NCBI GenBank assembly: GCA_963666735.1
Contig: OY762926.1
Coordinates: 2,848,001-2,912,000, forward strand
Source: Gemmatimonadota bacterium
GTDB lineage: Bacteria; Gemmatimonadota; Gemmatimonadetes; Palauibacterales; Palauibacteraceae
Direction of reading: 5' to 3'
DNA: 64,000 bases
Below are positions 51,046 to 63,031 of this stretch, piece by piece. The number at the start of each line of letters is the position of its first letter. Positions within the stretch are counted from its first letter, which is position 1. The notes under the pieces were generated by a model. The model was not told the origin of the DNA. It saw nothing but the letters and a program-made list of their open reading frames with translations, and did not search any database. Position numbers and translations under genes: made by a program.

Positions 51046-51840
51046 ATGATCGACATCCTGGCGGACTCGCCAGACGACGGGGCGCTCATCGCAAGAGCCA
51101 TCGGTAGCGACACACGGGTCCTGAACAATTCCGTTCGGTTCGCGAACGGCGGCGCCCATGCCGAGTGTCGGATCCTGGGTTGCCGCCATCCGATTCAGGC
51201 GGAGCGAATCGAACTCGTGCGAAAGATCGAGCGTGACGCGCCGTGGGTTCCCGTCATCCTCGTGACGGATCACGCGCCCGGCGTTGCTCACCGGCTGTGC
51301 GATATCAGGGTGGCGGCCGTCGTCTGGTACCCGGACGTCCGAACCGAACTCGAGCCCCGGATCGTCGCCGTCAAGCAATCGGTCCCGCTCCTGCGCCTGG
51401 CCAAACAGGTGGAGGAAGCGAAGCTGCCTCCTGCCCTTCGATCCGGACTGGCGTACAGCTTGCGCGCCGCCACCCGCCGACCCGTGCGCGGCTTGAAGGC
51501 GTTGGCGGACGCCGTTCACATCTCTCCCATCACTCTGTCCCACGAGTTCCGGAAGAGTGCCGGCGGGGCGGCAAACCTGAGCCAGTTCCTCAGCGCCCTC
51601 ACGGTCCTGAAGGCCCAGGAGCTTCGTCTCTCGGGTTTGAGCTGGGACGTGGTGGCCGGACGCCTGGGGTTCGCGCGTCAGACCCTCCACAACAAATCGA
51701 CCCGCTGGCCGGGCAGCACGCTCAAACAACTCGCGCGTACGCGCCAAGCGCCGCCTGGAAGTCGACCGATGGCGGCGAGAGCTGGACCCAAACAACTCGC
51801 GCGTACGCGCCAAGCGCCGCCCCGGGTCGGCGAGCGGTGA
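51046..51840 (+). CDS. HTH transcriptional regulator (degenerate receiver-like N-terminus, AraC-like double HTH)
   Basis: APWVPVILVTD, LKALADAVHISPITLSHEF, SWDVVAGRLGFARQTL; AAGGAG RBS; C-terminus runs into repeat array. Confidence 0.75.
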   Translation: MIDILADSPDDGALIARAIGSDTRVLNNSVRFANGGAHAECRILGCRHPIQAERIELVRKIERDAPWVPVILVTDHAPGVAHRLCDIRVAAVVWYPDVRTELEPRIVAVKQSVPLLRLAKQVEEAKLPPALRSGLAYSLRAATRRPVRGLKALADAVHISPITLSHEFRKSAGGAANLSQFLSALTVLKAQELRLSGLSWDVVAGRLGFARQTLHNKSTRWPGSTLKQLARTRQAPPGSRPMAARAGPKQLARTRQAPPRVGER

Positions 51841-51962
51841 GCCGGCAGGCGGAGGCGGCAAACAACTCGCGCGTACGCGCCAAACGCCGCCTGCGGCCCG
51901 GAGCGGGGGCGGTGGGCGACCAGTTCGGCACAAACAACTCGCGCGTACGCGCCAAGCGCCGC
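51723..51962. repeat. CRISPR-like array: 4 x 32-nt repeat, 3 unique spacers, no cas genes in window
   Basis: CAAACAACTCGCGCGTACGCGCCAAGCGCCGC at 51723, 51789, 51859 (1 mismatch), 51931; spacers 34, 38, 40 nt. Confidence 0.9.
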
Positions 51963-52301: not shown

Positions 52302-52826
52302 ATGATTGCCGCCCACGCCAGCATCTGGGCACCCGGTAAGTCGCAGTGCCTGAAGGCTACGTTGTCGGCAGCTGTTCTGGTCTCGCTGATCGGATGCCAC
52401 GGGACGTTCGCGCAGGATGAAGCTGGCGCGTGGGAGGAGCGGGCAAGCGACATCATCGCCGCGGCGGATCGGCGAGTCGAAGACGCAACGACTGTTTATT
52501 GGGTCATATCGCAGTCGGCATCAACAATTTGCTCTGATTACCTCTATTACGTTCGCCACTTCGCATCGCGTACTACAGATTATAAACATGTGATCATTAC
52601 GGATTTTGATGAGAATGCTCTCCGCAGCCAACTCAGAAAAGCTCGTATCGATGCCACGGTTATCGCCGTGCCGCATGTGCTTCCCTCCAACGCGATGCTA
52701 GTCGTCGCAGCGGGTACCGGCATGCAGCCCTTGGTGGTCCGATTTGTTGCTGGCACCGACGCCTCGCGGCACCCCAACCGTGTGTCGGATATGGTTGCCA
52801 ATCTTCTCGGGGAGGTCGCTGAATGA
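52302..52826 (+). CDS. Hypothetical exported protein
   Basis: AGGAGAG RBS, hydrophobic segment ending LIGC, coupled to next gene; lower GC. Confidence 0.55.
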   Translation: MIAAHASIWAPGKSQCLKATLSAAVLVSLIGCHGTFAQDEAGAWEERASDIIAAADRRVEDATTVYWVISQSASTICSDYLYYVRHFASRTTDYKHVIITDFDENALRSQLRKARIDATVIAVPHVLPSNAMLVVAAGTGMQPLVVRFVAGTDASRHPNRVSDMVANLLGEVAE

Positions 52827-53490
52827 TGCGGCTCGCGAGCCGCCCCGGCGAGCTCCTTTCGAGTGCGGCCGTCGTCGTGTTGGCATTCGCGGTGGCGTCG
52901 ACCCGCGGTGCGGGTGGACACACAGAACTTGTCGGCGAAACGACAGCTCGTTGTCGCGCAGATGTACCAGCAATCGGAACTACGTTCTTCGAGGCGCGTC
53001 GTGTCGACCTCCAGGATCTGGACACGGCGAGGCTGGTGACGCCCAGCGTCATCGATATCTCGCCATCGGGCAACCACATTCTCATCGGAGACCGCGACGA
53101 CTACGACGTGAAACTGTTTGATCGCGGCGGCCGCTTGATTAGCGTCATCGCAACGCGCGGGGAACAACCCGGACAGGTGTTTATTCTGGATGGCGCGGCG
53201 TTTCGCAATGATTCAATTGTCATGATCGCGGACGCCGGGCGGATGCAGTTGATGGAATTCGATCTGCAGGGCAAGCTGGTCGCCGAAACGCATCTTCCGG
53301 TACGACCGATCACCTCCGTTCAAGTGTTGGACCAAAGCGTGCTCGTCGGAGGAAGATCTCCTACCACGCTCGCGGACCCAAGAGTCAAGGGGGTTCATGT
53401 GCTGGATTCCGAGGGGAGTATTTCCCAGTCCCTCGGCTCTCAACCCTTGGCATCGGTCGGCGGCGTGTCAAGATACTTGGCCGCGACGGC
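52823..53490 (+). pseudogene. 6-bladed beta-propeller interrupted by IS remnant
   Basis: ILIGD, KLFDRGGRL, TRGEQPGQV, MIADAG; cut off at IS end. Confidence 0.72.
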
Positions 53491-53648
53491 TGTCGTACCA
53501 AAGTAGAAATGTCCCCCCTTAGCCAAGTAGAAATGTCCTCTTACGGTCCATGTTCGGTCAACGGCGGAACGGGATCCGGGAGAGGAGCGGATGGACTTGA
53601 GTCTGAGGGAGCGGGATCGCATCTCGGTGCTGAGACAGGTGAGCGAGA
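53491..53648 (+). mobile_element. IS1202/ISNCY-like left end plus first codons of transposase
   Basis: TGT terminus, tandem AAGTAGAAATGTCC sites (53501, 53525), ORF start MDLSLRERDRISVLRQV at 53591. Confidence 0.65.
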
Positions 53649-53715
53649 ATGGACGGTACGCGGTCCGCATTTTCGCGCCGTGTGCAACCAAGTCAGAAGA
53701 TTAAGGAGCATGACT

Positions 53716-53937
53716 ATGAAGAAAAGACACTCGAAGTTGCGTCTGGGGCTCGCACTCGTGCTGATCTCGGCGTTGGCCGGAACTGCCGGAGCATCCCCCA
53801 CACCTGCCAGTCAGGACGCGATGGAGGTCTTGTTGTGCAAGTACGACGCGGAGGAAGATGCGCAGCGGTGCCGCGTTGTTGAAGTGCGGTGCGCGCCAAA
53901 CTGCTTTACGGGCTTCTGCTGTATGCATATCGACTAG
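53716..53937 (+). CDS. Secreted 6-Cys micro-protein A
   Basis: AAGGAG RBS, signal peptide, C-x10-C-x6-C-x3-C-x4-CC. Confidence 0.78.
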   Translation: MKKRHSKLRLGLALVLISALAGTAGASPTPASQDAMEVLLCKYDAEEDAQRCRVVEVRCAPNCFTGFCCMHID

Positions 53938-53985
53938 CTTCAGAGCGATCGATTTCGACGCCACCGGGAAGGAAGGTTTACAGTG

Positions 53986-54231
53986 ATGTCAGACCAACTG
54001 AGACCACGCCGCTCGATCTGGACGTCCGTGCTAACTGCGGTCGTGGTGGTCGGCGCACTCTGTGCTCCGCAACTCGGCAAGCCGGGGCATGCGCAAGAAG
54101 ATGATGGGGGGCCACCCGACGATTCGTACCAAGCGCTCAAGGCCATCCACTGCGACCTTGATGGCTGTGAGGTTCGCGGCTACTACTGCTTGCGAAGGTG
54201 CTGGGCGGCTCCATGCTGTGTCGACGCGTAG
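53986..54231 (+). CDS. Secreted 6-Cys micro-protein B
   Basis: GGAAGG RBS, signal peptide ending GHA, C-x4-C-x6-C-x3-C-x4-CC. Confidence 0.78.
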   Translation: MSDQLRPRRSIWTSVLTAVVVVGALCAPQLGKPGHAQEDDGGPPDDSYQALKAIHCDLDGCEVRGYYCLRRCWAAPCCVDA

Positions 54232-54263
54232 GCTCTTCGTTCCTTCTTCGCGAGACTAACCTG

Positions 54264-55379
54264 TTGCGGGCACTAGCCCTCGTGGCGGCAGGGGCCGCGT
54301 CCGGGTGTGGGATGCCTGCGAACTCGGACGAGGATCGGGAGCTGGCGTGGGCTCTTACGCCGGAATTCCGGTTGGGATCACAGTCCGGTCGCGACGCGCT
54401 GCATCGCGTGTCGGCCCGATCGACGACGGTGGGACCTGACGGGTCGTTCTACGTTCTCGACAAGGGCAACTACCGGGTCGTTAAGTTCGACGCGGAGGGG
54501 GGATATGTCCGCGAGTTCGGATCGAGAGGCGAGGGGCGGAGCGAGTTTGCCTACCCCATGGCTTTGCTTGGACCTCGGGGAGATACGCTGAGCGTTCTGG
54601 ACGGCCCTTCGCTGTCTCACAAGCTCTTCACAACTGCGGGAGACTTCCTGGAGGCGAGGCGTATTCCCCAATCCGCAGCCAGTGAAGACCAGCGGGATAC
54701 GTCGGACGGCATCGTTCTCGTGGAGATCTTTGGCTATCGCAGTCGCAGCGCGGAGGTGACGGACCGCCTCGTATTGATTCGTGATCGCGGCGACACCATC
54801 ACGCTGGCCGACCAAACCAGGGCGTCATCGGGTACATACACCATTCCGGTGTGCAACTACACCATTCCGGCAGAGCCCTTATTCAGGCACGTCCTGTGGT
54901 GGGATGCGGCCGGTGATCTGATTGCCGCGACCCAGAGCGCCGACTACTCAGTGCATGTGTTCAACCGTGGCAGGTTGGTGCAGGAATTGAAGCGGGCGAT
55001 TCCGCCCGCCCCGATCACGGAGGTGGTGGCGCGCGCCGAAGTTGGGGACGGATCTACGTGGAGCGTGGCGGGCCGCGCCTGCACGGCTGATCCCGAGGAT
55101 GAACTGGATGCTCGGGGGTTTGAGGACTTCCGGCAGGTGATCACGGGGATCCGCGTGGACCCGACCGGTTGGATCTGGGTGCGGCGTCACGCCGCGCCGC
55201 CGGGCGAGGAGGACCGACACAGAATCGATGTCTTCGATTCGGCCGGGGTGTTTCACGGCACCCTCCCGGCAGACACGCCGTGGCCGGGCATGTTCACGCC
55301 GGACGGTCGAGTCGTGCGCCGCGAATTGGACGAGTTCGACGTGGAGTATCTCGTCATCTACCGCATCGACAGAAACTAG
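54264..55379 (+). CDS. 6-bladed beta-propeller lipoprotein
   Basis: AASGC lipobox, FYVLDKGNYRVVKF, FGSRGEGRSEF, VDPTGWIWV, LDEFDVEYLV; start uncertain. Confidence 0.85.
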   Translation: MRALALVAAGAASGCGMPANSDEDRELAWALTPEFRLGSQSGRDALHRVSARSTTVGPDGSFYVLDKGNYRVVKFDAEGGYVREFGSRGEGRSEFAYPMALLGPRGDTLSVLDGPSLSHKLFTTAGDFLEARRIPQSAASEDQRDTSDGIVLVEIFGYRSRSAEVTDRLVLIRDRGDTITLADQTRASSGTYTIPVCNYTIPAEPLFRHVLWWDAAGDLIAATQSADYSVHVFNRGRLVQELKRAIPPAPITEVVARAEVGDGSTWSVAGRACTADPEDELDARGFEDFRQVITGIRVDPTGWIWVRRHAAPPGEEDRHRIDVFDSAGVFHGTLPADTPWPGMFTPDGRVVRRELDEFDVEYLVIYRIDRN

Positions 55380-55543: not shown

Positions 55544-56203
55544 ATGCCAGTCGAGGTGCAACCTCGTCCTGATCTGGACGCGGTAGCTCTGCGTAACGCG
55601 TCAGGACGGCTGGCCTGCGCGATCGTTGCGCTTCTCGGACTCGGGAACGGGGTGCCGGCGCTTTCCGGTCAGGAGCTGGATTGCGGCGGGCGGGCCGTCA
55701 TGCGTGTGATGGTGCTGGACGAGTCCGGGATGATGCCCATTCCGGGGGCGACCGTGGTGCTCCGTGGTGCTTCGCTGGACGGACACGGACGCCGTTCGGA
55801 GGCCGATGCGGCAAGAGGTCGACCTCCAGGGCAGTGTGCGGATCTGCGCCCCAGGCGACGCCAGACGCGCGACGCTGTGGGCGGAGTTGGGCAATATCTC
55901 GAGCAGGCAGCGGTCGGTCGAACTTGAGCCCGGTATGTCGCGGGATGTGGAACTGCGGCTGCTCCTGGAGTCGTCAGCGACCGGGCGCTTGATCGGACTG
56001 GTGCAAGACGCGCGGACGGACCGTCCGGTGGCGGCGGTCGCGGTGTCGCTCGGGGGGCGCACGGTGGCCGAGACCAACCGGAGTGGCCAGTTCATCCTCA
56101 GCGGCGTGCCGGTGGGGATCCACGAAACTCTCCGTGCGGCGGCTTGGCTACGCGCCGCTCGTACACCCGGTCGTGGTGTCCAAGGGCGTCACCACGGACC
56201 TTG
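55544..56203 (+). pseudogene. Frameshifted paralog of the downstream carboxypeptidase-regulatory-like protein
   Basis: Same motifs (DCG.RA..RV.VL, WTDT, CAP.DA.RATLWAE, LSGVP.G, LGYAPL) split over three frames, truncated. Confidence 0.8.
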
Positions 56204-56352
56204 AGCACGTTCTACGGCGTCGCTGGCGGCGGAGTTCGGGGGGTCGGGTTCACGTTGTGGAGTCGTCGCGGTCTGGACCAAGTAGGCTCGCCCCGCGCGC
56301 AGGGTTCCTCCTCCTGGCTTGATGCAGGGTGCTCCGGATCCCAGTCTTCGGG

Positions 56353-60183: not shown

Positions 60184-61470
60184 ATGAGCCATCCCCGCGC
60201 CTCCCGCTTCCCCGTCGTATCGCTCTCGACCACCGCTCCGACTGTTGCCCCGGCCGTCGCCCTGGCCGCCGCCCTGACCATCGCCGCATGCGCTCCCGGC
60301 GGCGGAGATCCGGCGGGCGACGACGACGGCATCGTCTTGACCGCGCTCCACGACTTCCGGGTCGAGGAAGTGGCCGGCGGCCTCGTGCGCCCGTTCTCGA
60401 TGGCCTTCACGCCCGAGGGAGACCTCCTCGTGACGGAACGTCCCGGCCGGCTCCGCATCATCCGCGACGGCGTCCTGCTCCCGGAGTCCGTGGAGGGCCT
60501 GCCGCCGATCCGGGCGCTCGGGCGCGGTGCCCGTTCCATGGCCGGCTTCGAGCAGGCCGGGCTGCGCGACGCGATCCTGCACCCGGATTTCGCGACGAAC
60601 CGGCTGCTCTATCTCAGCTACGTGAAGCCGGGTCCCGATTCGCTGGGCACGATCGCGATCGCCCGCGGCCGGTTCGAGAACGACCGGCTGAGCGACGTCG
60701 AGGAACTGTTCCACGCGGACGCGCCCGGCAACGGGACGGAGCGCAGTTCGATGTGGGGCGGACGCCTCGTCTTCGGCCACGACGGCTACCTGTTCATGAC
60801 GCTGGGCGACCGGCAGTGGCCCTCCGCCGGCGACCTGGAGGCGCACCCCGCCCAGGACCTGTCCCGTCACAACGGCAGCACGATCCGCATCCACGACGAT
60901 GGACGCGTCCCCGAGGACAACCCGTTCGTGGGCCGCGACGGGATCCACCCCGAGATCTGGACGTGGGGCCACCGGAACGCGCAGGGGATGGCGGTGCATC
61001 CCGAGACGGGGGAGCTGTGGCAGAACGAGCACGGCCCGCAGGGCGGGGATGAACTGAACCTGATCGAGCCGGGGCTCAACTACGGCTGGCCCGTCGTCGG
61101 CTACGGCGTGAACTACCGAACGGGCTCGCGGATCCACTCCGGGACGCTCATGGAGGAGATGGAGCCGCCGGAGCACATCTGGGTCCCGTCGATCGGCGTC
61201 TCCGGGATGCTCTTCTACACGGGCGACGCCTTCCCCGAGTGGCGCGGCGACATGCTCGTCGGCGGTCTCAGCGGTCGGCGCCTCGCGCGCCTGCGCCTGG
61301 AAGGCCGGCGGGTGGTCCACGAGGAGACGCTGCTGCAGGGGATCGGCCGCATCCGGGACGTGCGCCAGGGACCCGACGGGTTCATCTATCTCGCCATCGA
61401 CGGCGAGACGCGGGACGTGGACGGCCCCGCGACCGGGCTCGTGAGACTGGTGCCCGCCGGCCGGAGGTAG
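60184..61470 (+). CDS. PQQ-dependent sugar dehydrogenase (YliI/sGDH-like)
   Basis: VTERPGRLR, GHRNAQG, EHGPQGGDELN, NYGWP, RIRDVRQGPDG. Confidence 0.93.
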   Translation: MSHPRASRFPVVSLSTTAPTVAPAVALAAALTIAACAPGGGDPAGDDDGIVLTALHDFRVEEVAGGLVRPFSMAFTPEGDLLVTERPGRLRIIRDGVLLPESVEGLPPIRALGRGARSMAGFEQAGLRDAILHPDFATNRLLYLSYVKPGPDSLGTIAIARGRFENDRLSDVEELFHADAPGNGTERSSMWGGRLVFGHDGYLFMTLGDRQWPSAGDLEAHPAQDLSRHNGSTIRIHDDGRVPEDNPFVGRDGIHPEIWTWGHRNAQGMAVHPETGELWQNEHGPQGGDELNLIEPGLNYGWPVVGYGVNYRTGSRIHSGTLMEEMEPPEHIWVPSIGVSGMLFYTGDAFPEWRGDMLVGGLSGRRLARLRLEGRRVVHEETLLQGIGRIRDVRQGPDGFIYLAIDGETRDVDGPATGLVRLVPAGRR

Positions 61471-61539
61471 CCCAAGCGGAGATTCGGCGCCTTTCGCCCG
61501 TAGGGGGCTCGACGACGCGGTAGGGTCTCGGTCCCGGCG

Positions 61540-63031
61540 AGTGTTTTCCAATACGGAGATGAGCCTGAACGGGGAGTCGTGAGCCGGGGCCGCGGGGCCG
61601 TTGGGGTTCGACTCTCTTCCGGATAATCCTCGGTGGAGGGAGGGTCGCGCAACGGGGGCCGGGGGGAGCGGACACGGGGGACTCAGGCGACCGATACGGC
61701 GGGGTCGAGAGAGCGGAACAGGTCGCGGCGGGCCTGGCGGACGGTCCTGGCGGCCTGGAGGCCGGGGGTGGCCGAGGCGACGCGGTCGAGCGCCTCGAAG
61801 GTGACGCCCTCGCGGAGGAAGCTCTCCGCGTCGTCGAGAGACTTGAGCTTCTCGTAGGGGTGGCGACATCCCGTTGGCGGTAGCGCTTCTTGATGCGGCC
61901 GCGGGGGCCCTCGACCTCGGAGGGGAAGAGGCAGGGCCGGTGGAAGTTGAGGAAGGGGCAGAGGTGGTCGCGGAGGAAGTCGTTGACGGCGGGGGCGCAC
62001 CCGGCGGGGATGTGTGCGCGTCCGAGCCACTTGCGAACGATGGCTCCGTTCTTGGACTCGACGAGCGCGTTGTCGTTGGAGTGACGCGGGCGGGACTTGG
62101 TGAACTGGCCGATGTGCAGCTTGTTGAGCATGCCGGCGACGTGGTGGTTGACGTACTCCGAGCCGTTGTCGGCGTGGAAGGCCCGGACTTGGAAGGGGAA
62201 GGCGGTGAGGAGGTCTTCGAGGACGGGGAGCATGAAGATCTCGGTGATGCGGGAGACGGAGCCGATGTGCTCGAACCGGGTAACCTGGTCGACGACGTTG
62301 AGCGCGTAGAGGCCCTTTACGCCGTTGAGGTCCCCCTGGTGGACGGTGTCGACGCGGACGAAGCCGGGGCGGCCGTCGGGATCGGGCTTGCGGCGGACGC
62401 CGATGGAGACTTGGACGGGGCGGGTCTTGTCGAGGGAGAGGGCTCCCAGGCGGTAGTCCCGCCGCTTGCGGAGGTTGTGGATGTGGCCGTTGGAGATGTG
62501 TGCGAGGCGTTCGAAGCGCCCGTCGCCGCGGACCTCGTACTGGCGGCGGAGGACCTCCTTGGTGGCGGGTCCGGAGAGGCGGCCGTAGGCGGCGTCGACC
62601 TCGGCCGGGAGGGCGGCGTCGCCGGGCGTGTAGCGCCGCTGGAAGGCGTTGGCCGGGGGCTTCCCGCGCCGGTCGCGGATGTGGCCGGTCCTCTTGTGCT
62701 GAGCGATCAGCCGGGTGATCTGCGCTCTCGAGAGGCCGGTCACCTTGGCCAGATAGGCCTTGACGAGACCCTTGTCTCGCTTGCCGAGGCGGTGGTAGCG
62801 GAGCCTCTCCAGCGAGCGCCGGACGAGGAGGTAGGCCGAGTCCCGGTCGTTGAGGGTGAAATCCACCGGCTCGCTGCCCTCGAGGAAGGCGCGAACCTCA
62901 TCGAGCGTCCGAATCCGTTCGGTGCGAAGCGTCACGATCATGCCTCCATGATCTCATCGCCCCGCACCTCAGGCTCACATGCCGGTGGAAACCCGTCCCT
63001 CGTTCAGGCTCACGTCCCGTTGGACAAGACT
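61540..63031 (-). mobile_element. ISNCY-like insertion sequence (integrase-core transposase)
   Basis: Imperfect about 31-bp TIRs (AGT.TT.TCCAA...TGAGCCTGAACG); CGGCG duplicated at 61535-61539 and 63032-63036. Confidence 0.82.
61683..62941 (-). pseudogene. Integrase-core DDE transposase with a frameshift near 61857
   Basis: VDTVHQGD, FHADNGSEY, SRPRHSNDNALVESKN; C-terminal PYEKLKSL continues in another frame. Confidence 0.82.

Follow-up and report, generated by a model that had tools for sequence, protein, structure and literature searches.

Gene content of the locus

The window, which is the whole stretch of 64,000 nucleotides of DNA that was analysed, carries a gene cassette behind a Na+/H+ antiporter gene. 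Downstream of a putative regulatory gene, the cassette is ordered as a gene for a protein with a single Cys (one-Cys protein), a propeller gene (propeller A), two peptide genes (ORF1 and ORF2, for peptides 1 and 2) and the gene for a second propeller, a putative lipoprotein (propeller B). The features, all on the forward strand and numbered from the first letter of the window, are as follows.

51046..51840, +, putative regulator, AraC-type helix-turn-helix with a sub-threshold PF12833 match (E 2e-5); opens the filled slot
52302..52826, +, one-Cys protein, 174 aa, probably exported, one conserved Cys; no Pfam family
52823..53506, +, propeller A, 5′ part; DUF5128 six-bladed propeller, the native sequence of which stops near 53487
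53488..53640, +, left end of an insertion sequence, replacing ~400 nt of propeller A
53641..53704, +, propeller A, 3′ remnant; matches the C-terminus of the G017 protein and runs into the ribosome-binding site of ORF1
53716-53937, +, peptide 1 (ORF1), 73 aa, six Cys, main (TGFCC) subfamily
53986-54231, +, peptide 2 (ORF2), 81 aa with six Cys; a diverged paralogue, of the xxPCC subfamily
54198..55379, +, propeller B, six-bladed, NHL/DUF5128-like; start at 54198 or 54213 (uncertain), with a lipobox-like ASG-C recognised by eye

The base composition of the cassette genes is atypical, with GC3 of 0.63-0.75, whereas that of the antiporter gene is 0.93. Two paralogues of the regulator occur in the genome, at distances of 0.9 and 1.4 kb from propeller genes. 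A 41-nt repeat is present four times at 51714-51962, with 66-72 nt spacing and unlike spacers, and overlaps the 3′ end of the regulator. Of two carboxypeptidase-regulatory/plug genes, the first (55601-56204) is split, whereas G017, a genome of the same genus as the one studied here (G000), has it as a single 364-aa ORF. The one-Cys protein had appeared thioredoxin-like by eye, but hhalign gave a probability of 0.3% against a DsbA-type protein and no thioredoxin match was obtained. No sigma-70-like promoter was found at the locus.

The two peptide genes

The earlier note had described two adjacent ORFs of 73 and 81 aa with ribosome sites and signal peptides, and both ORFs are present. Each is preceded by a purine-rich ribosome site, AAGGAG at 7 nt 5′ of the ATG in ORF1 and GGAAGGAAGG upstream of the start in ORF2, for which a GTG at 53983 is an alternative start. 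Both N-termini are basic and then hydrophobic, the best 11-residue mean hydropathy being 2.74 in ORF1 and 2.83 in ORF2, though signal peptides were called with a hydropathy script and by eye rather than with a dedicated predictor. Removal of the signal would leave mature peptides of 45-50 aa.

The Cys pattern is C-x10-C-x6-C-x3-C-x4-CC-x4-stop in ORF1 and C-x4-C-x6-C-x3-C-x4-CC-x3-stop in ORF2, which bears out the shared terminal spacing (C-xn-C-x6-C-x3-C-x4-CC-x3/4-stop) that had been noticed. In all six frames of the genome (3,977,883 bases) the frame C-x6-C-x3-C-x4-CC occurs in two segments, which are ORF1 and ORF2, with 0.025 expected from the Cys frequency and with the pattern itself derived from these two ORFs. 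As the frame was defined on ORF1 and ORF2, the existence of a family and the substitution pattern of ORF1 are stronger proof than this rarity. Between G000 and G017 the mature region of ORF1 has 5 synonymous and 1 non-synonymous differences (pN/pS 0.05), and by this measure ORF1 is under purifying selection. ORF2 has 2 of each, too few for judgement.

The two sequences had been considered almost unrelated. Their identity is 17-27%, varying with the alignment, but bridging relatives such as P0010, P0012 and P0016 combine the CDLxGC loop of ORF2 with the TGFCC end of ORF1. Judged from these comparisons, ORF1 and ORF2 are real genes and paralogues of one family that has no name.

A family with a conserved acidic core

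A profile built from six close sequences found 10 representatives among 1.84 billion sequences. A wider profile gave 15 clusters at 90% identity, to which P0013 and P0026, missed by that search, were added to make 17. Homologues that keep the Cys spacing therefore exist: x6-x3-x4-CC is retained in 16 of the 18 tabulated sequences, a count biased upward because a profile search prefers members that keep the spacing. One of the other two has x5, and one, P0009, which is nearly identical to peptide 2, has lost its fourth Cys.

The C1-C2 loop, of 4-13 residues, is the sole variable loop. Between the cysteines the consensus is YDAxxxIEC..CxVTGVxCLPxCxTGFCC, and 14 of 17 aligned rows end in [TS]GFCC, the other three forming an xxPCC branch like ORF2. 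Before C1, Ala is invariant and Asp conserved ([YHR]DA motif). This conservation between the cysteines identifies ORF1 and ORF2 as paralogues and the core as conserved and acidic. The earlier note had seen hypervariable loops on a fixed Cys frame, typical of defensin- or toxin-like peptides. However, the loop between C1 and C2 alone varies, ORF1 is under purifying selection, no defensin profile matched, and the net charge is -4 for each ORF and negative in the cores of 16 of 18 family sequences. As the core is conserved and acidic and subject to purifying selection, that description is mostly wrong.

The view that the peptides belong to no named bacterial family agrees with the searches. Pfam and NCBIfam at E<=1 gave no family for ORF1 or ORF2, Pfam applied to the 17 family members gave two single weak DUF matches and nothing else, and a profile search of PDB sequences had no family match at E<=10. 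Viral contigs contained no motif matches; plasmids lacked any match to the peptide and had a single weak, partial one to propeller B. In the protein atlas, the matches of peptide 1 were 0.82 or lower, inside the range of shuffled proteins. A match in G409 (E 5.6e-4) was dropped as it lies within a 342-aa ORF, and weak single-protein matches were also discarded, the four that were inspected having no peptide candidate.

In named genomes the family is rare, being found in 2 of 145 genomes of the order and 2 of 401 of the phylum sample, both times in G000 and G017. Other records include sets from contigs of equal size, namely P0005, P0009 and the propeller A relative P0046 (5792), P0006, P0025 and P0030 (4950), and P0013 and P0021 (4915), which suggests that the peptide pair recurs.

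The model of ORF1 is weak (pLDDT 60.7). Its best part is a hairpin with strands at 35-44 and 49-59, in which C41 faces C52, and two peptides of G006 have the C-x3-C-x4-CC end and no more of the frame. The C41/C52 register, the loop variation at that place and the G006 ends together suggest a C1-C2 bond across a predicted β-hairpin, and a separate knot of two disulfides formed by C3-C6. A fold search of 48,161 chains yielded nothing at Z>=2 and a second fold search nothing at E<=0.001, neither being informative with so weak a query. Both peptides are likely to be exported and to carry three disulfides.

The two propellers

Propeller A matches PF17170 with 23.9-25.9 bits (cut-off 22.9), and 11 relatives share conserved N- and C-terminal Cys residues. 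In G017 it is intact and 371 aa long, while the interrupted stretch measures 164 nt here, mostly insertion sequence, compared with 404 nt in G017. The insertion-sequence end recurs with 99-100% identity over 158-161 nt at three other sites and with 88-98% at three more. In the public runs X1 and X2, one contig extends from the left flank to ~30 nt inside the insertion and another from inside it to the right flank; as both junctions are spanned, an assembly error is unlikely. The pN/pS of propeller A is 0.47. With propeller A broken, this copy of the cassette may no longer yield active peptide. An insertion-sequence transposase with an integrase core domain is encoded at 61382-62941 on the reverse strand of the window.

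Propeller B is intact, with pN/pS 0.10. It matches NHL above the cut-off and PF17170 under it (13.9 bits), and its orthologue at the metagenome locus L097 matches PF17170 with 36.7 bits. Its model (pLDDT 84) has as best fold matches the Brat NHL domain and the Bacteroides proteins BVU_1028 (Z 17.7) and BF0058 (Z 17.4), with rmsd ~4 over 257-296 aligned residues. Two Cys are invariant among its relatives. Among the genomes searched, its five nearest relatives from outside (44-46%) all lack a peptide candidate within 1.5 kb.

The fold is common to the amidating lyase PAL, with Z 14.1 for propeller B. Extracytoplasmic tailoring by the propellers, with the peptides as RiPP-like precursors and [YHR]DA as the recognition or cleavage site, would make use of the invariant Ala and conserved Asp before C1 and of the two different propellers per cassette. 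However, PAL has three zinc-binding His and acts on a C-terminal Gly, whereas no His is conserved in 16 relatives of propeller B (alignment A7) and one in 11 relatives of propeller A (A5), and the peptides have no conserved C-terminal Gly. Non-catalytic NHL domains outscore PAL in the fold comparison, and known RiPP enzyme families are absent from the cassette in Pfam and NCBIfam searches. We regard this possibility as distinctly unlikely.

Exchange at a chromosomal slot

The antiporter gene was found in 22 of 36 genomes of the genus. Downstream DNA could be compared in 20 of the 21 other genomes, as the G022 sequence ends too soon, and G005 was uninformative, which left 19. The slot is empty in 13 of these, with no regulator, peptide or propeller up to the next conserved gene, and one of the 19 (G017) has the same cassette. 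In four (G002, G008, G020 and G033) the regulator or a remnant of it precedes Cys-rich proteins and propellers that are unrelated, and one (G006) has the regulator and a subtilase. The regulator or its remnant is the first gene in all 6 filled slots of the relatives. In G023, where the slot is empty, another peptide-propeller pair lies 2 kb further on. In G008, G002 and G033 (L191, L192 and L201) an exported protein of 352-361 aa with no Pfam match is encoded between the regulator and a CxxC-rich protein of 145-157 aa.

These arrangements indicate that diversity arises by exchange of whole cassettes among close relatives. Of the proposal that the peptides form a diversifying family of secreted peptides, the family and its probable export and disulfides stand, but the diversification lies in whole-cassette swaps with unrelated peptides and not in the loops.

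A counterpart was found in a metagenome, where 48 of 50 matches to a motif scan were due to chance and the remaining two, L097 and L108, are one real locus. It encodes a one-Cys protein (E 7e-7), a propeller A (26%), one TGFCC peptide and a propeller B (35%) in the order of the cassette, and both propellers are reciprocal best matches among 87. Among 401 genomes of the class, two (G000 and G017) have the one-Cys protein. By these comparisons, the peptide family is real and unnamed, and the cassette that holds it is real, exchangeable and of a kind not described so far.

A strain-variable slot with a dedicated regulator would also suit kin-recognition or host signals for which the propellers are receptors or carriers; the core is conserved, and the many lone propellers could read the peptides of other strains. 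However, no sensor kinase or transporter was seen in the cassette, the regulator has no membrane segment by eye, and the same cassette is present in a distant organism at the L097 locus. We consider a signalling role unlikely.

Peptides, propellers and DsbA across the genome

The genome has 95 propeller ORFs. Candidate peptides were defined by a signal-like start, a ribosome site and at least four Cys, giving 38 small ORFs, a set that includes false ORFs. Of these, 19 lie directly upstream of a propeller on the same strand, where random placement gave a mean of 0.48 and a maximum of 4 in 2000 draws, the upstream distance window having been fixed after a first look at the data. The proportion is 13/18 for candidates with six or more Cys and 4/218 for a control with 0-1 Cys. 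In five other genomes, with loci chosen by Pfam match and not by peptide, an upstream candidate was present at 11 of 77 propeller ORFs compared with 1 of 77 on the opposite strand (G020 7/46, G006 2/13, G042 1/7, G040 1/10 with the one doubtful, G409 0/1).

None of 24 other peptides of the genome has a match at the Pfam/NCBIfam cut-off. Their Cys frames differ, several have odd Cys counts, and the net charge is negative in 31 of 36 peptides. A recent duplication of a peptide-propeller cassette is seen at G000:C1:332025-336853, the peptide copies at 333092 and 336503 being identical. At G000:C1:2500266-2500724 and 2888960-2889409 a 150-aa exported protein, PDZ-like by eye, lies between peptide and propeller. 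An eight-Cys peptide at G000:C1:3876819-3877693 (L056) is followed not by a propeller but by a 199-aa lipoprotein of no family, and its leader resembles that of a cassette 3.6 kb upstream. A lipoprotein-like ORF of 165 aa with 14 Cys and long proline runs, at G000:C1:1882554-1883051, has no adjoining propeller.

About 73 of the 95 propellers have no peptide, and seven tandem propeller genes at G000:C1:2382504-2391171 are without a peptide candidate. In 11 of 13 homologous peptide pairs, the propellers that follow are within the top tenth of similarity. A global co-divergence of peptides and propellers found no support (Mantel rho 0.02, a value reached in 598 of 2000 permutations), and as this overall correlation is nil, linkage may be all that the pairing reflects. 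Nor was a single clade of peptide-linked propellers supported: they are scattered over the tree with 20 changes compared with 22.4 when shuffled; this was a quick tree of 87 of the 95 ORFs, eight short or poorly matched ones being left out, and the G017 protein.

Of the six DsbA-family genes, five have a same-strand propeller within 300 nt (2.4% chance each), and four of these are in peptide cassettes. The remaining one, at G000:C1:2002499-2003482, adjoins a membrane protein that is VKOR-like by eye and is probably part of a housekeeping oxidation pair.

Cys-rich, acidic peptides might instead be periplasmic metal chelators. However, the presence of DsbA genes next to other cassettes suggests that the Cys are oxidised, neither a metal transporter nor a modifying oxidase could be identified in this cassette, and unrelated peptides swapped at one slot would not be expected of chelators, a function that we think very improbable.

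Proposed role of the cassette

Our preferred interpretation, held tentatively and with less than even confidence, is that the peptides are secreted effectors against other bacteria and that the propeller B lipoprotein binds them and protects the producer. From their anatomy and the DsbA link, the peptides would be exported by Sec, cleaved from their signals and oxidised to three disulfides by a DsbA-type enzyme. Propeller A and the one-Cys protein might aid folding or delivery, and propeller B would bind the peptide. A protective propeller is favoured by the gene order, the swapping at the slot, the arrays of lone propellers, and the state of this cassette, in which propeller A is broken and propeller B, which stands alone in five relatives, is intact. 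The conserved acidic core argues against a membrane-lytic defensin. It also fits a fixed partner or a structural role better than an arms race; lone propellers may have other jobs, and profile comparison and Pfam did not identify a DsbA of the cassette's own. Further points against the effector role are that bacteroidetocins need no immunity protein (PMC6671954) and that immunity proteins which are lipoproteins are an exception in PMC3482391.

The same core keeps close another explanation, which is that the peptide is a small disulfide-locked subunit of a lasting periplasmic or surface propeller complex, serving as adhesin, receptor or enzyme. This is modelled on the layout of methylamine dehydrogenase, in which a propeller large subunit is combined with a disulfide-rich small subunit and has its own thiol-oxidoreductase helpers. 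The conserved, acidic core, the purifying selection and the joint travel of cognate pairs suit a subunit, the odd Cys counts of several other peptides leave a thiol for an inter-chain bond, propeller B has its two invariant Cys, and other cassettes have dedicated DsbA genes. However, most propellers, including the closest relatives of propeller B, have no peptide, a single fold is paired with unrelated peptide frames, and cassettes often have two peptides. The family alignment also has no conserved Trp for a quinone cofactor. On balance we judge a subunit role somewhat unlikely.

A wider and more speculative view can also be considered, for which we have slightly less confidence. Gemmatimonadota, and perhaps other diderm phyla, would have an undescribed combinatorial system in which each genome encodes dozens of unrelated mini-proteins locked by disulfides, every one with its cognate six-bladed propeller, and in which these are swapped at fixed slots for competition or recognition. 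DUF5128 would be a general family of peptide-binding immunity proteins or receptors, and the genomes a bacterial counterpart of the venom-peptide libraries of animals.

A cognate ligand would open the question of DUF5128 function to direct test, in a family strongly expanded here. The two peptides, of 45-50 residues, are synthesisable and their candidate partners are known, while the slot comparison shows the origin of the diversity in whole-cassette exchange. The family also offers a natural disulfide scaffold for which no solved relative was found, and the genome has some two dozen further unnamed scaffolds.

Comparison with known systems

Defensins are cationic as mature peptides, and β-defensins have the bonds 1-5/2-4/3-6. 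The peptides are like those of the β-defensin type in having a signal peptide, six Cys ending in CC and a short tail. They differ in Cys spacing, in their acidic core and in the lack of a Pfam or PDB match, and the weak model (pLDDT 60.7) predicts a C1-C2 bond across a hairpin.

Bacteroidetocin (class IIf) clusters resemble the cassette in a small Cys-rich secreted peptide and an accessory four-gene unit, and encode a thiol oxidoreductase with the peptide, according to PMC6671954. As described there, bacteroidetocins have a 15-aa double-glycine leader, four Cys, an ABC transporter/peptidase and a five-TM protein, and act without an immunity protein. The peptides described here have a Sec-like hydrophobic leader and six Cys, and their cassette has two propellers and no transporter. 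PMC6671954 does not mention the word propeller. As to a thiol oxidoreductase, a DsbA-family gene is present in four other cassettes of the genome, and the one-Cys protein of this cassette has no thioredoxin match.

Polymorphic toxin-immunity and polyimmunity loci, in the portion of PMC3482391 consulted, share with the cassettes an effector-like gene followed by a partner gene, strain-variable content and arrays of lone partners, and the persistence of lone propellers resembles their polyimmunity loci. The toxins of those loci are bigger and built of several domains, the C-terminal one of which is swapped, whereas the peptides have no recognisable toxin domain. A lipoprotein immunity protein is exceptional in the collection of PMC3482391, and no propeller immunity family was seen in the same portion.

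Full-text searches, covering main texts and few subscription journals, brought up neither the family nor the cassette. The terms propeller, NHL, cysteine, peptide and bacteriocin are all missing from the main text of PMC10469786, the paper in which the order was named. Within the literature searched, no function is on record for DUF5128-type propellers or NVEALA.

The peptides adjoin propeller A, a PF17170 protein, and in this they resemble NVEALA (PF14055) genes, which we take to adjoin DUF5128-type propellers in Bacteroidota. The peptides are not NVEALA, as PF14055 matched neither ORF1 nor ORF2, none of the 17 family members and none of the 24 other peptides. A PF14055 search of the genome was blank as well, but so were its 14 controls, and by itself it carries no weight. 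The propellers themselves have the same family and fold as the DUF5128 (PF17170)/DUF4221 propellers of Bacteroidota (PDB 3S9J and 4RAA).
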